Source: Escherichia phage anhysbys
Reading direction: 5' to 3' (one strand)
Sequence record: NC_052656.1
Length of the DNA stretch: 64,000 nt
Made by a program: the position numbers and the translations under genes. This document shows positions 945 to 6,897 of the stretch, in pieces. The notes under the pieces are model-generated. The model ran no database searches. It had not been told where the DNA came from and saw only the letters and a list, made by a program, of their open reading frames with translations. Every line of letters starts with the position of its first letter. Position 1 is the first letter of the stretch.

Positions 945-973
945 AAAAGGAGCCATTTGGCTCCTTTCTTTTA
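945..973. terminator. Bidirectional rho-independent terminator between convergent genes
   Basis: Hairpin ggagcc-attt-ggctcc flanked by A-run upstream and T-run downstream. Confidence 0.6.
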
Positions 974-999: not shown

Positions 1000-1887
1000 T
1001 CAGAACGGAATATCATCATCGAAGTCCATTGGAGGTTCTTCTTGATTACTTGGAGTTGGTTCTGGTTGTGGTTCAGGCTTTTTAACTTCTTTCTTCTCTT
1101 CTTTCTTAGGTTGTTCTGCGGAACCACGAATGGCAGCAGCAACTTTATCAGACAGAGCTAGAACTTTACGAGCAGAGTCAATCAGATCTTCTACGGATAC
1201 AGTCTTAATGGTATGGTCTTTACAAGCATTGAGAATAGCGTGACCAACAGATGCCCCAAGATCATAATCATTAATATCAACGCCACGAGATTCAGCAATT
1301 TCTGATTTCAGCGTGACAGTTGCAGATTGAACAACCCCAGCGATATCGAAAGCATCGCCTTTAACACCATTACGAATCAGTTCCAGTGCACCATTTACTG
1401 CGTGACCAGTTTCCAGACCTACAGTATCACGTTTTTTATAGGATTGCTTAGGAGCAGCATCGTTGGAACCTTTATTGCCAGAAGATTTGTTAGACTTCTG
1501 AACACCATCGGTAGACAATACTGTAATACGAGATTTTTTAGTATTGTAGTAAGTTTTACCGCCTTTATTATCAACGCGATCAATATCAATACTTACTTCT
1601 ACGCCTTTTTCAATAGTGATCCAATTATCACCTTCTTTGACTTGCAGGTTTTCATAACCTTCTTTCAGTTCAATGTCACCAAGAGAAATCCAAACACCTT
1701 TCTCATCTGGTTTAGCACCTTTCTCTTTCAGAACAAGAGAAGCTCGGTGAGTTGAAACAATCGTTTTTCCTTCCCAATGGAAAGTTTTAGGTTCAGCGAA
1801 TTTATCCAGTTTAACGTAGTCTACGATACCAGTTGCATAAGTTACGGTTTTGCCTTTACGATCAGTTTCAGTATTAATTACGGACAT
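1000..1887 (-). CDS. ssb: Single-stranded DNA-binding protein-like, with host-SSB-type acidic C-terminal tail
   Basis: C-terminus PSNQEEPPMDFDDDIPF matches the E. coli SSB tail (MDFDDDIPF); basic/Pro-rich linker; N-terminal region not recognisable by eye. Confidence 0.55.
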   Translation of the reverse strand: MSVINTETDRKGKTVTYATGIVDYVKLDKFAEPKTFHWEGKTIVSTHRASLVLKEKGAKPDEKGVWISLGDIELKEGYENLQVKEGDNWITIEKGVEVSIDIDRVDNKGGKTYYNTKKSRITVLSTDGVQKSNKSSGNKGSNDAAPKQSYKKRDTVGLETGHAVNGALELIRNGVKGDAFDIAGVVQSATVTLKSEIAESRGVDINDYDLGASVGHAILNACKDHTIKTVSVEDLIDSARKVLALSDKVAAAIRGSAEQPKKEEKKEVKKPEPQPEPTPSNQEEPPMDFDDDIPF

Positions 1888-1903
1888 TATTATCTCCTCT
1901 ACA

Positions 1904-2296
1904 TTACATTAATTTTGCACAGAAAGAGCGGAGTCTTTCCATATCATCTTGCTCTAACAGGTATTTACCTTTACCTATTCCAACTCCAATTTCACCATTA
2001 GGAAAATGAACTATTTGCACTGGGAAACCTCCGAGTTTAATTGTGGCAGCTTTGCCTTCTTCGTCTATAACGTTTCGGATTGTATCTTGCAGTGAAATGA
2101 ATTCTTTGTTTGTAACAGTGGTTTCAATTATTTCAGATGTTTCGACACGAGCAGTTAGCTTCTTGTTTCCACCTTGAATAACCAAAATTTGAAAATAAAA
2201 AGAGTTGTCAAGACCTACAACATTTTTCTCAACTAGTGTCAAACTGGTATAGTTTCCATAAACAGTTTCAACAGCTATCTTAGAACGTTCAGTCAT
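1904..2296 (-). CDS. Hypothetical protein
   Basis: 130-aa ORF tightly packed in minus-strand operon. Confidence 0.4.
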   Translation of the reverse strand: MTERSKIAVETVYGNYTSLTLVEKNVVGLDNSFYFQILVIQGGNKKLTARVETSEIIETTVTNKEFISLQDTIRNVIDEEGKAATIKLGGFPVQIVHFPNGEIGVGIGKGKYLLEQDDMERLRSFCAKLM

Positions 2297-2341
2297 TGGA
2301 TGCTATCCTATCATAAAATGTTTAATATTGTCAAGCTTTAA

Positions 2342-2935
2342 TTACCAAGGAATATCATCTTCTTCCAATCTGGTATCTACTTGAGGTGGACGTGGAACCT
2401 TAACCTCTTTCACAAAACGAAGATATGGGAAACGTGTAGCAATTTTAATAACATGTTTGGCATCTTCTCTAACATCTTTGTGCAAGAAGCAGATCCCTGT
2501 TTCCAAGGTTGTTTCAAAATCTTTAGAATAATAACAGTCCTTCCCATCAAATGCAGCCTGGCAGATGGACAGATCGAACTCATTTAGAAAGGTTGTCATT
2601 ACGCTTGGTTCCATAATCATAAGGTTGCAAAGCTGACCATCACGTTCAAACTCAAAAACGTGTTTAAGACCAGTAACACCTTCATAATTGTCAGAAGCCT
2701 CTTTGTTCCCTAGTTTACGAATATTGGTTCCCATTAAAGCAGATGCAATTAATCCTTGTATTTGTTCTTCAGTCCGATGTGCAGGAAGGGATGTATAGAA
2801 ATCCAGATCACGTCCAGCAATATCAAGAATACGCCAATCACGAACAGCACCGCCAGCCAAGACAGAATTAGGATCAGCGATCTTTAATATGGTAAGAATT
2901 TCTTTGGCAATATTGATTTGTTTTGATTTAGTCAT
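2342..2935 (-). CDS. Minimal nucleotidyltransferase of the CCA-adding/poly(A) polymerase head-domain type
   Basis: Motif LAGGAVRDWRILDIAGRDLDFYT matches the GGxVRD...DxD signature of class II tRNA nucleotidyltransferases; only 197 aa. Confidence 0.5.
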   Translation of the reverse strand: MTKSKQINIAKEILTILKIADPNSVLAGGAVRDWRILDIAGRDLDFYTSLPAHRTEEQIQGLIASALMGTNIRKLGNKEASDNYEGVTGLKHVFEFERDGQLCNLMIMEPSVMTTFLNEFDLSICQAAFDGKDCYYSKDFETTLETGICFLHKDVREDAKHVIKIATRFPYLRFVKEVKVPRPPQVDTRLEEDDIPW

Positions 2936-3515: not shown

Positions 3516-3528
3516 ATCTTCTCCTATA

Positions 3529-3546
3529 AAGGGGCAGAAGCCCCTT
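3529..3546 (-). terminator. GC hairpin downstream of DNA polymerase stop
   Basis: aaggggcttctgcccctt on the minus strand; weak U-tract. Confidence 0.35.
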
Positions 3547-3564
3547 ATAAAACAATACGTTAGA

Positions 3565-6500
3565 TCAATGACAGGATGCCCAAGAATTACCCACATCATA
3601 TCCGGCAGTAAGCTGAACATTAAGATTGTAAAATTCTCCAGCCTTAGTAACAGCTAAGGCAGCAAGTTCACCTGCCCGACTATAGGCTGTAAACCATCCA
3701 CCTTTGGGAGATTCATGAATGTTAGCCCAAATTTGTCCCGTCTCTTTTTCCTTATTATGCTTCCATTCTTCAACTTTAGCAAGGCATTCTTTATCAATTT
3801 TCTTTTGTTCTTCAGGATCGTCTACTTTCTTCCAACCTAACGATTCAGGTGAAAACCATTTGAATTCTACAAGGTTACGAGAAACTTCAAGCTGGGCTTC
3901 ATCGTGATATGCGATCATTTGTTGCACGAAGTCTTTATTCTTCCAGTCATCTTTAAAGAAGTCAACACTTAGTCCTTCTTCTTCGATCATGTCGTCATAA
4001 ATAACCATTGCACGTTTAGCACAGATAACCCCACCACTTTGGAACAGAGAGTTAAGAATCGCGTGAGCAGAACGAGTAGGAACCTTACGACCGTCAATAC
4101 CCAAAACATATTGTTTACCAGTCTTAACCCAGAAATCGTTTAAACGTTCTTTAAGACGCGCCAATGGGAATGCAGCTTCCCAGAAAGCATCGAACACCAA
4201 TTGACCTGTAAACTTATCGCTACCAATTGTTTTAGCAACCTTGTCGGCTTGTGCACCATAGGTAATACCATACTTAACAGATTTAGCAGGACTACGTTCA
4301 AATTTACGTCCAATAGTTTCAGTGATACGTTTTGCCATCATTGTGTGAACATCATTAGGTTTCTCTAACAACAGAGCGTTACAATATTCGTGTGGCTCCG
4401 GCTCGTACCGCCAACAGTTTCCTGTGATGGTAATGCAGTCTTTCTGACGCATGACCCACGTACCAAGTTCTGTTTGTGGACACCAAACATCCTCTACACC
4501 CCACTCTTCAATAGTCAAACTTTGAACAGGAATGTGAGAGCGGTTAGTCAATGTTGCCACTTTTACTTTCTGCTCTTTTGTATTGAAAGCTACAGAGATA
4601 TTGCCTCCATGCACCAGGTACGAGGCAGTTAAAGCTGCTTCAAAAAGTTCACCTGGGTTCTGCGCCCAACGCCAAACAGGTTTTTGTTTATGTTCGTGCC
4701 AGTAACCATCTGCAATCAAGAAACCTTCCAAGAAAGCTACACGCTCGGCATGAGACATATTAACTACACGTTCTACCCACGGAACATCCCATTTACCTTG
4801 TTGAACAGAAGTTAAACTATTTACCTGATCTTGTTCCATGTTAAATGGAGCATTACAAATAATGTTATCTCCTGTGCAAAGCTCGGCAGTTGTTCTGACT
4901 TTAGGCACATAAGTATTCCCTTTACTACGGGTATTAACATACCAACGGTGATCTGCTGTTGCACGGTAAGTGTGTGATTTCCCTTTAATCTCAAACGTCT
5001 TACTATTTTTATAGAAGACCTTACCTTTTACTTTAGTCCATTCTTTCAGACCTGTTTCAGCATTGTACCCTAAAATCTCATCCCCTTCCTTCAGGTCGTG
5101 ATATCCTACCCAACCTTTACGAGTCAAAGCTTGAGCATCCATCGGCACACAGTAGTGTGATTCAATTTTTGCTTCCAAAGAGTCGAAGTCGTAGCCAATC
5201 TGGAAGTACTTAGGAACCTCTACACCAAACAAGTTACGCATCTCCCATCCAAACAAAGATGTGACACGAGGAATATTAGCTACAGACCTATGCTTCATAC
5301 GAGAGGTTGCAGCATCACATGTAGCTGCTGGGGTAGGAATACGACCATCCGCCCTTACTGCGGCTAAGAAACCTTTATCATATTCTTGATCTTCCTCATC
5401 TTCTTCCCAATCAGCACCACCGCCTAAAATAGAGTTCCTACGATGCTTATACGTTAAGTATTCTACAATCTGTGTAGCATAAGGGAATTTCTCACCTAAA
5501 GCTTGCAGGTTAGGACAGATTTCTTTTTCCTGACCTTTGGTAAAACATGGGTTAGTCAATACTTTAAGACCGCGACCCTTACCTTTTGCTATACGCTCTT
5601 GAATCTTCCTCTCCAAGGTTTCCGGTGTGCACTCCAGATGATCACAACGATCCTGACAAAAATTAGAAGACAGAGTTTGCTCAACGTAAGCTCGAATACC
5701 TTTCTGAAGTTCTTCCTCGCTCTTTTTAATCTTGGTGCCAGATTTAAGAGTCAAGTCTTTATCTTTATATTCAGACGGTACCCAACCTAATCCTACAAGC
5801 CAGTTTTTAATATGGGTAGTATCGTTCAATGTTGCAGGGATATTAGGATCACACAAAGGCTCATCTGCTGCAACTGGTAGTTTCCACTCTTTCCCCAACA
5901 TAACTAACCACCAATCGCCATCCCTCTCTTCCAAATGACCATCATGTTTCTTAGCAAAATTGATCATATGGTTAGTTGGCTCTAAGTTCTTTTTAATTTG
6001 CAACTTAGGTGGAATAAAAGCCTTAAGATAACCTTTTGTTGCTGGTTTAGGTGGCAAAATAGGCTCAACGAGTAAACGAAGACGCTCCATTTCTGCATCC
6101 AAAAAAGCAAGGTTCTCTTCTGCTTGCTTCATGTTAAAAGCAAACCCACGGTGTTCCTGGCGTGTAATAATGTCTGCTACACGTTGTTCAAGTTCAAATG
6201 GACCTTCCCATTTATCATAATCACCCCATTCTTCCATAAGGTAATTATATACGCTCGTATTGGCTTTGTTGTCATAGATACAGTAATAAAGCATATCCGC
6301 AGCAAAAGTCTTAAATCGATCTTCTTCTGGAATCTCTTTACGGAAATCTATTTTTACATCACCACCTGCTTTTCGAGAAAGTGCTGCCAAGCTATGTCCT
6401 GATTTGCCCTCAATCTTTCGATCTGGGTTTAACACTTTACTCAAAATCAAGGAGTCAATAAGTTTTACCTTATTTTTGCCCCACGTATTATATTTAACAC

Positions 6501-6897
6501 TGTAATCTAAACCATAAAACAGTTTTGTAGCCAACCAGTCATAGTTGATACCGTTGTGAGCCACAGCCATTTCAACCAGATATTCAGGCTTATCTTTAAA
6601 ATAACCTTCATGATTAATAAAGTCTGGGAAATCTTTTAGTTGAAAATGTGTGTAATCTTGCGCCACATACTCTTTAAGAACATATGTGTATTTACCATCT
6701 GACTCTTCATAAGGACGCCCATCAAAGATGTATTTAGGGCCATCGTGGAAAGCTACTATTTCTCCTGTTTCATGGTTCTCTAAGACAATACAGTGCATTT
6801 GAAATGTGTCTTTGAGACGATAAGGACTAGCTAAATAATCGATAGTGTCATTATTCAACAATCCGTTTGCTTCAATATCCCATGTAAACTTACTCAC
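3565..6897 (-). CDS. Family A DNA polymerase with 3-prime-5-prime exonuclease domain, interrupted in frame by an intein
   Basis: Exo motif DIEANGL; motif A GYDFDSLEAKIESHY (cf DYSQIELRIMAHL); motif B RSPAKSVKYGITYGAQ; motif C AYHDEAQLEV; 245-aa insertion between motifs A and B. Confidence 0.85.
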   Translation of the reverse strand: MSKFTWDIEANGLLNNDTIDYLASPYRLKDTFQMHCIVLENHETGEIVAFHDGPKYIFDGRPYEESDGKYTYVLKEYVAQDYTHFQLKDFPDFINHEGYFKDKPEYLVEMAVAHNGINYDWLATKLFYGLDYSVKYNTWGKNKVKLIDSLILSKVLNPDRKIEGKSGHSLAALSRKAGGDVKIDFRKEIPEEDRFKTFAADMLYYCIYDNKANTSVYNYLMEEWGDYDKWEGPFELEQRVADIITRQEHRGFAFNMKQAEENLAFLDAEMERLRLLVEPILPPKPATKGYLKAFIPPKLQIKKNLEPTNHMINFAKKHDGHLEERDGDWWLVMLGKEWKLPVAADEPLCDPNIPATLNDTTHIKNWLVGLGWVPSEYKDKDLTLKSGTKIKKSEEELQKGIRAYVEQTLSSNFCQDRCDHLECTPETLERKIQERIAKGKGRGLKVLTNPCFTKGQEKEICPNLQALGEKFPYATQIVEYLTYKHRRNSILGGGADWEEDEEDQEYDKGFLAAVRADGRIPTPAATCDAATSRMKHRSVANIPRVTSLFGWEMRNLFGVEVPKYFQIGYDFDSLEAKIESHYCVPMDAQALTRKGWVGYHDLKEGDEILGYNAETGLKEWTKVKGKVFYKNSKTFEIKGKSHTYRATADHRWYVNTRSKGNTYVPKVRTTAELCTGDNIICNAPFNMEQDQVNSLTSVQQGKWDVPWVERVVNMSHAERVAFLEGFLIADGYWHEHKQKPVWRWAQNPGELFEAALTASYLVHGGNISVAFNTKEQKVKVATLTNRSHIPVQSLTIEEWGVEDVWCPQTELGTWVMRQKDCITITGNCWRYEPEPHEYCNALLLEKPNDVHTMMAKRITETIGRKFERSPAKSVKYGITYGAQADKVAKTIGSDKFTGQLVFDAFWEAAFPLARLKERLNDFWVKTGKQYVLGIDGRKVPTRSAHAILNSLFQSGGVICAKRAMVIYDDMIEEEGLSVDFFKDDWKNKDFVQQMIAYHDEAQLEVSRNLVEFKWFSPESLGWKKVDDPEEQKKIDKECLAKVEEWKHNKEKETGQIWANIHESPKGGWFTAYSRAGELAALAVTKAGEFYNLNVQLTAGYDVGNSWASCH
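4417..5151 (-). mobile_element. Intein (Hint domain with LAGLIDADG-like homing-endonuclease motif) within the DNA polymerase
   Basis: Starts CVPMD (Cys codon at 5149-5151), block B TADHRWYV, LAGLIDADG-like AFLEGFLIADGYW, ends ITGN followed by Cys; extein resumes CWRYEP. Confidence 0.6.

Follow-up and report, generated by a model that had tools for sequence, protein, structure and literature searches.

The gene at positions 1000..1887 (minus strand, stop codon included) of the 64,000-nt stretch of Escherichia phage anhysbys DNA that we analyzed (NC_052656.1; hereafter the window) encodes a 295-aa SSB-like protein of the family PHROG 4477, which is probably the phage's own ssDNA-binding protein, made together with the replication genes and docking through its C-terminal tip in the pockets that read the tip of host SSB. 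We base this reading on the open reading frame, the identity of the tip, the predicted fold, family membership and genomic context. The basic idea is not new, as GenBank records name the protein an SSB and a preprint noted the tip in a homologue, and phage SSBs with host-like tips are already well known. The frame runs from an ATG at 1887-1885 to a TGA at 1002-1000, and translation of the plus strand across the same interval is interrupted by many stops. The start codon is supported by the N-terminus MSVINTETDRKG, which is common to homologues; by sequence inspection, a ribosome-binding site, GAGGAG (1894..1899, minus strand), lies 6 nt 5′ of the ATG. On the 3′ side of the stop codon, a bidirectional intrinsic-terminator hairpin with a 10-pair stem and a T run on each strand (945..968, both strands) separates the gene from a convergent tail gene (11-943). 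The identical 295-aa protein is found in at least 56 phage records, annotated as hypothetical in some and as single-stranded DNA-binding protein in several. Records labelled as Campylobacter, Acinetobacter, Klebsiella and Pseudomonas phages hold proteins with 98.5-100% identity to proteins of this coliphage genus, or 59% in the Pseudomonas case, and the GenBank host labels of some of these records look doubtful.

The protein ends in PSNQEEPPMDFDDDIPF, and its final residues, PPMDFDDDIPF, form an acidic tip (residues 285-295; 1003..1035, minus strand) that we delimited by alignment to chains 1eqq and 7f2n of E. coli SSB. The initial annotation had matched the last nine residues to the E. coli SSB tail; the alignment bears this out and lengthens the identity to the last 12 residues (EPPMDFDDDIPF), with a PSN also shared farther upstream. 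An identity of this length, sitting exactly at the C-terminus, is not due to chance. A search of all PDB sequences with the protein matched nothing but the tail regions of E. coli-type SSBs (1eqq, 7f2n), and hhalign against E. coli SSB gave a probability of 96% for the tail only, with the last 15 residues aligned. In nucleotide comparisons with chromosomal and plasmid ssb genes of E. coli, alignment is limited to the last 39 nt, with 80-92% identity in nearly all records. We considered a recent capture of the tail from host ssb and rejected it, as 80-92% over 39 nt is about what would be expected from identical residues, and as recent capture is also contradicted by the conservation of the tip across the family, where PPMDFDDDIPF is the most conserved protein segment (mean column identity 0.83). 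An acidic [I/L/V]PF tip is shared by ~80% of 258 sampled members, so the tail is an old, selected trait of PHROG 4477 and not a recent host acquisition.

The AlphaFold2 model of the protein, computed from an alignment of 52 homologues (mean pLDDT 81.9), divides it into an N-terminal beta domain, a basic linker, a helical bundle and a disordered C-terminal segment. Structure prediction of the N-terminal domain had been proposed in the initial annotation, which held that the body was not an obvious E. coli-type OB fold; this holds at the level of sequence, where no SSB profile matches, but not for the fold, as residues 1-125 are predicted to form an OB domain (1513..1887, minus strand) that is all-beta in the model, with pLDDT of ~81-93 per ten-residue block. 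Matches to this presumed ssDNA-binding part include bacterial SSBs, RPA32, Stn1 and PriB, all of which bind ssDNA, and it contains conserved aromatic (H47, W66, W89, Y114) and basic (K34, K41, K84, K111) residues. The basic linker that follows (residues 126-152; 1432..1512, minus strand; pI 9.9) is poorly conserved (mean column identity 0.34) and predicted to be disordered at residues 133-149 (pLDDT <50); at its position, alignments show that long-form relatives carry an extra beta domain of ~70 aa. Model and alignment then define a conserved four-helix bundle at residues 153-254 (1126..1431, minus strand), with helices at 156-172, 179-201, 208-223 and 232-253 and pLDDT mostly >90. Two motifs of this helical domain, RDxxGxETGHAxNGA and GASVGHAxLNA, are the sharpest conserved motifs of the protein body, and residues D154, G157, G161, H162, A163, T190, K194, G211 and G215 are near-invariant. 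Searches by structure and by sequence found no informative relative of the helical domain, the structural matches being generic bundles only. Residues 255-295, comprising the second linker and the tip, are disordered and modelled with low confidence; the linker itself (residues 255-284; 1036..1125, minus strand) is rich in K, E and P, with pLDDT of 45-59 and a mean column identity of 0.31.

The succession of OB fold, disordered linker and acidic tip parallels the architecture of bacterial SSBs, in which a disordered linker likewise leads to an acidic tip D-D-D-I-P-F. The body of the window protein, however, has no detectable sequence homology to E. coli or other bacterial SSBs (PF00436), plasmid and prophage copies included. 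No Pfam family matches the protein, SSB (PF00436) giving no match at E≤1, and the score with NCBIfam PRK09010, where the cut-off is 260, is 22.8 bits and comes from the tail only. The phage protein also has an extra four-helix bundle between the OB fold and the tail, and its linker is K/E/P-rich whereas that of E. coli SSB is G/Q/P-rich. Because no profile matches the body, we place the protein outside the bacterial SSB family despite the like layout and tip. One could go further and suppose that it is not an SSB, its beta domain being a generic OB-like scaffold, its helical domain having an unrelated function and its tail being a leftover, consistent with the position of the sharpest body motifs in the helical domain rather than in the OB fold and with the absence of any sequence profile tying the body to an SSB family. 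We consider this very improbable, since the OB fold is confidently predicted with bacterial SSBs, RPA32, Stn1 and PriB among its matches, the gene has a replication context, and the tip cannot be a relic when its conservation is the strongest of all segments.

The window comes from a phAPEC8-type myovirus of E. coli (genus Phapecoctavirus, subfamily Stephanstirmvirinae; ~150 kb), and many phages of this type match its first 25 kb at 97-99% identity. EF1-1, an annotated relative, has a leftward operon that consists of primase/helicase, methyltransferase, family A DNA polymerase, small ORFs, a nucleotidyltransferase, a 130-aa gene and, in last position, the SSB-like gene, which is the sole gene annotated as SSB in the complete EF1-1 genome. 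That the gene closes an operon with primase/helicase and a family A DNA polymerase supports the reading as an SSB. tblastn with E. coli SSB against the complete EF1-1 genome gave no match beyond the SSB-like tail, and annotation and tblastn together located no canonical SSB elsewhere in the complete 148-kb comparison genome, whose identity to the compared part of the window is 98.9%. Separately, the family A DNA polymerase of the window (1110 aa; 3565..6897, minus strand) has an insert of ~200 residues at about 590-810 (CVPMDAQALTRKGW ... ITITGN/C) that appears intein-like, and the Pfam DNA_pol_A match on this polymerase spans residues 845-1009 only. EF1-1 has an additional HNH endonuclease gene (L001 3524..4114) between the DNA polymerase and the small ORFs that is absent from the window (about 3520..3570), and in the rV5-type phage Bas51 a homing endonuclease gene lies directly 3′ of the SSB gene; the replication operon is a hot spot for free-standing endonuclease genes.

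Directly upstream of the SSB-like gene, 16 nt from its start, lies the 130-aa gene (PHROG 16560; 1904..2296, minus strand). A promoter-like site, TTGACA-18-TAGGAT with a TG (2305..2334, minus strand), recognized purely by consensus match (10 of 12 positions), precedes the unit formed by these two genes and falls in the gap that separates the stop of the nucleotidyltransferase gene (2342) from the 130-aa gene start (2296). The pair is kept in five Stephanstirmvirinae genomes. The 130-aa protein is modelled as beta4-alpha-beta4-alpha (pLDDT 87.9), and this predicted (beta4-alpha)x2 fold can tentatively be called Whirly/PUR-like, at modest scores, making the protein a candidate second single-strand nucleic-acid binder. 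With such a candidate ssDNA binder directly upstream, the SSB-like protein may not be the only or the main replicative SSB. We also compared the 130-aa gene with the upstream gene of rV5-type phages and rejected homology between them, as there is no BLASTP match and the two fall into different PHROGs.

For the SSB-like protein itself, we infer ssDNA binding, oligomerisation and every partner interaction along the following lines. The N-terminal OB fold would bind the ssDNA that phage replication forks and recombination intermediates expose, while the four-helix bundle would most likely mediate self-association, and possibly partner contact, giving several tails per complex; the flexible charged linker would then display the C-terminal tip. 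As the tip is identical to that of E. coli SSB, it could dock in the pockets that read the host tip, whose owners include exonuclease I, PriA, RecQ and the chi subunit of Pol III, and phage-encoded readers are also possible. Docking would bring repair, restart and nuclease activities to phage ssDNA, or keep them off it, and recruitment of host partners is put forward as a plausible candidate role. The interpretation in the initial annotation, in which the protein could recruit or compete for the host SSB interactome, has partial support.

The main alternative, an arrangement resembling that of T7, would have the tip serve mainly phage partners such as the family A polymerase, the primase/helicase or a recombination protein, with its identity to the host tip secondary. 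We regard this as rather unlikely, though several observations are consistent with it. The phage has genes for a replisome of its own and for a DprA-like mediator, and an acidic xPF tip is kept across PHROG 4477 down to ~30% identity: among the 258 members sampled, the C-terminus is P[F/W/Y] in 215, PF in 208 and IPF in 144, and in the 208 PF-ending members the nine positions ahead of the terminal xPF contain 4.8 acidic residues on average. Furthermore, the nucleotidyltransferase two genes away (PHROG 10174; 2342..2935, minus strand) ends in EEDDIPW (last 7 codons, 2345..2365). Apart from this enzyme and the SSB-like protein, no gene product of the genome has a C-terminus like the SSB tip, and in the complete 148-kb genome D-D-I-P-[F/W] ends are confined to the SSB-like ORF and one neighbor; the presence of DDIPW on this enzyme suggests a shared phage-encoded reader. 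This tail is conserved among Phapecoctavirus-type phages and varies between relatives, being FEDFQDDIPW in phiWec188 and DTDEDIPW in PsgM04F and absent in phi92 and Klebsiella phage 05F01; a PDB sequence search with the nucleotidyltransferase gave no useful match.

Precedents for phage-directed tips come from two other phage SSBs. In T7, the phage DNA polymerase is the docking site for two acidic, Phe-terminated tails, those of the replicative SSB gp2.5 and the helicase-primase gp4; the gp2.5 tail binds both T7 polymerase and helicase, and its terminal phenylalanine is essential for partner binding. The window protein resembles gp2.5 as a phage SSB with an OB fold, predicted in our case, and an acidic C-terminal tail, but has no sequence or close structural similarity to it. 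The SSB of HK620, a phage SSB distant from the host protein with a host-like tip, needs its last six residues to stimulate the phage annealase Sak4; this tip, NDYPPF, is only similar to that of the host, however, and the body is a distant homologue of bacterial SSB (PMC5928155). The HK620 gene is also located in a recombination module, whereas the gene in the window belongs to a replisome operon. What weighs against a mainly phage-directed tip is that 12 consecutive residues match the host exactly and that no phage protein with a pocket for the SSB tip has been identified. In addition, members from enterobacterial phages have the exact enterobacterial tip and those from other lineages have DDLPF, DEDVPF and similar endings, a pattern that resembles the variation among bacterial SSBs and fits host tracking better than a private phage code.

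An exhaustive profile search with a 52-member profile recovered 315 representatives of PHROG 4477 at E≤0.001, most with the whole architecture and some remote ones with the helical domain and tail only. The SSB-like protein matches this family, annotated as 'unknown function', at E=2.7e-97 and has its N-terminal OB fold, helical motifs and acidic tip; the match falls in two stretches because the inserted beta domain is absent from the window protein. The ~70-residue second OB/beta domain it lacks is found in members of 370-425 aa, and the short form without this domain makes up about half of the family. As only part of the family has it, the second beta domain defines a subgroup and not the family, and the window protein is a short single-OB form of the PHROG 4477/Bas52_0087 family.

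Bas52_0087 of Vequintavirus Bas52 (QXV84166.1) is a predicted SSB-like protein with a pair of OB folds and the tip FDDDIPF, and is the one family member shown to trigger the defence system DRT10 (DRT10/UG17), for whose activation it is required and which in the BASEL screen also restricts Stephanstirmvirinae (bioRxiv 10.64898/2026.04.29.721553). This subfamily contains the genus of the window phage. The two proteins share PHROG 4477 membership, an N-terminal OB fold, the helical motifs and a disordered C-terminus with an FDDDIPF-type tip. They differ in that the window protein has no ~70-aa second beta domain, which the preprint calls a second OB fold, and in that its upstream partner gene is of a different family; compared with the rV5-type long forms, it is ~31-34% identical and has 295 aa rather than 408 aa. 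The rV5-type orthologue matches PHROG 4477 at E=7.5e-173 over 1-393 of 393, and the Bas51 orthologue of Bas52_0087, also in PHROG 4477, has 408 aa with D at 252 and Y at 351. We rejected the idea of a split gene in rV5-type phages, since the 'hypothetical protein (x2)' label on the tblastn matches reflects a 1-nt overlap with an unrelated upstream gene and the orthologue is one 408-aa ORF. The mutations D252V and Y351C that allow escape from DRT10 map to a putative oligomerisation interface (bioRxiv 10.64898/2026.04.29.721553). In our alignment, the near-invariant D154, at the beginning of the helical domain, pairs with D252, and an alanine in the last helix of the window protein, A250, pairs with Y351. 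As the helical domain has no informative relatives, its possible role in oligomerisation rests on the suggestion made in the preprint.

The same work reported that exonuclease I (SbcB) counteracts DRT10, with ExoI dosage modulating defence, and that SbcB dosage and Bas52_0087 oppose each other on DRT10, and the authors consider that SbcB might be outcompeted or displaced (bioRxiv 10.64898/2026.04.29.721553). This opposition, together with the rank of the tip as the most conserved segment of the protein, would suit a decoy that presents many host-type tips, titrates SSB-interacting proteins such as exonuclease I off host SSB or off phage DNA, and coats ssDNA only secondarily. Such titration might shield phage ssDNA ends and disturb host repair, yet both as a role and in these effects we find it improbable. 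Expression of Bas52_0087 alone left E. coli viability unaffected (bioRxiv 10.64898/2026.04.29.721553), which argues against strong titration of host partners. The OB fold and its conserved aromatic and basic residues are maintained across the family, further weakening a pure decoy role, and the gene occupies a replication-operon position, with no canonical SSB found elsewhere in the genome.

Some relatives of the protein, the allele in the window not among them, continue past the tip. An APIGLQY-type extension of 12-17 residues after IPF (consensus APIGLQYxxLLxCM) is present in 19 of 258 sampled PHROG 4477 members, or in 22 with a looser search pattern, including phi92 gp156 (L010 2526..3473) and some Phapecoctaviruses. 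The same extension is found on many canonical E. coli-type SSBs of Vibrio, Escherichia (HK75, mEpX2), Salmonella and Proteus phages; besides L010, the loci with extended SSBs of either kind are L002 (3001..3933), L009 (2564..3517) and L013-L042. Residues of the extension outside the search pattern are kept through many synonymous codons, indicating purifying selection on the peptide. We examined whether an overlapping HNH start codon could be the general cause of the extension and rejected this, as most loci have no ATG there and the downstream genes differ; the explanation holds for one Phapecoctavirus contig. On the L002 contig, whose SSB is 99% identical to that of the window, an HNH endonuclease gene (PHROG 2340; 3905..4399) is placed between the SSB gene and the terminator, with its ATG inside the QY codons of the extension, while phi92-type phages keep an 11-codon remnant only. 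The motif 'PIGLQY' was found in no paper of the searchable literature, and a capped canonical SSB gene (L027) had no megablast match among complete E. coli genomes. Binding of the canonical SSB-Ct pocket needs a free C-terminal carboxylate, and the cap should therefore mask the free C-terminal Phe and block canonical pocket binding. The capping of the tip by 15 residues in relatives such as phi92 gp156 counts against our main reading: either a free tip is dispensable or the tip is read differently. We speculate, without thinking it likely, that the host SSB tip is a portable and regulated docking code, carried by the SSB and by the DDIPW nucleotidyltransferase two genes apart, with the SSB co-transcribed with the Whirly/PUR-like candidate and the tip capped in relatives and in many canonical phage SSBs.

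Phage SSBs are sensed, directly or via the ssDNA they present, by several defence systems, among them Retron-Eco8, DARNA, Hna, AbpAB and DRT10, and the PHROG 4477 family is common in large virulent coliphages considered for therapy, namely the phAPEC8, phi92 and rV5 groups. Our analysis adds a domain map, the placement of both known DRT10 escape positions in the conserved helical domain, and a set of residues for mutagenesis (D154, H162, K194, G211/G215, F295). By joining a non-canonical body to a perfect host docking peptide, the protein offers a clean natural tool for separating the roles of the tip from those of the OB core. If the tip were indeed a portable docking code, these phages would have control over who engages the SSB interactome, and at what moment.
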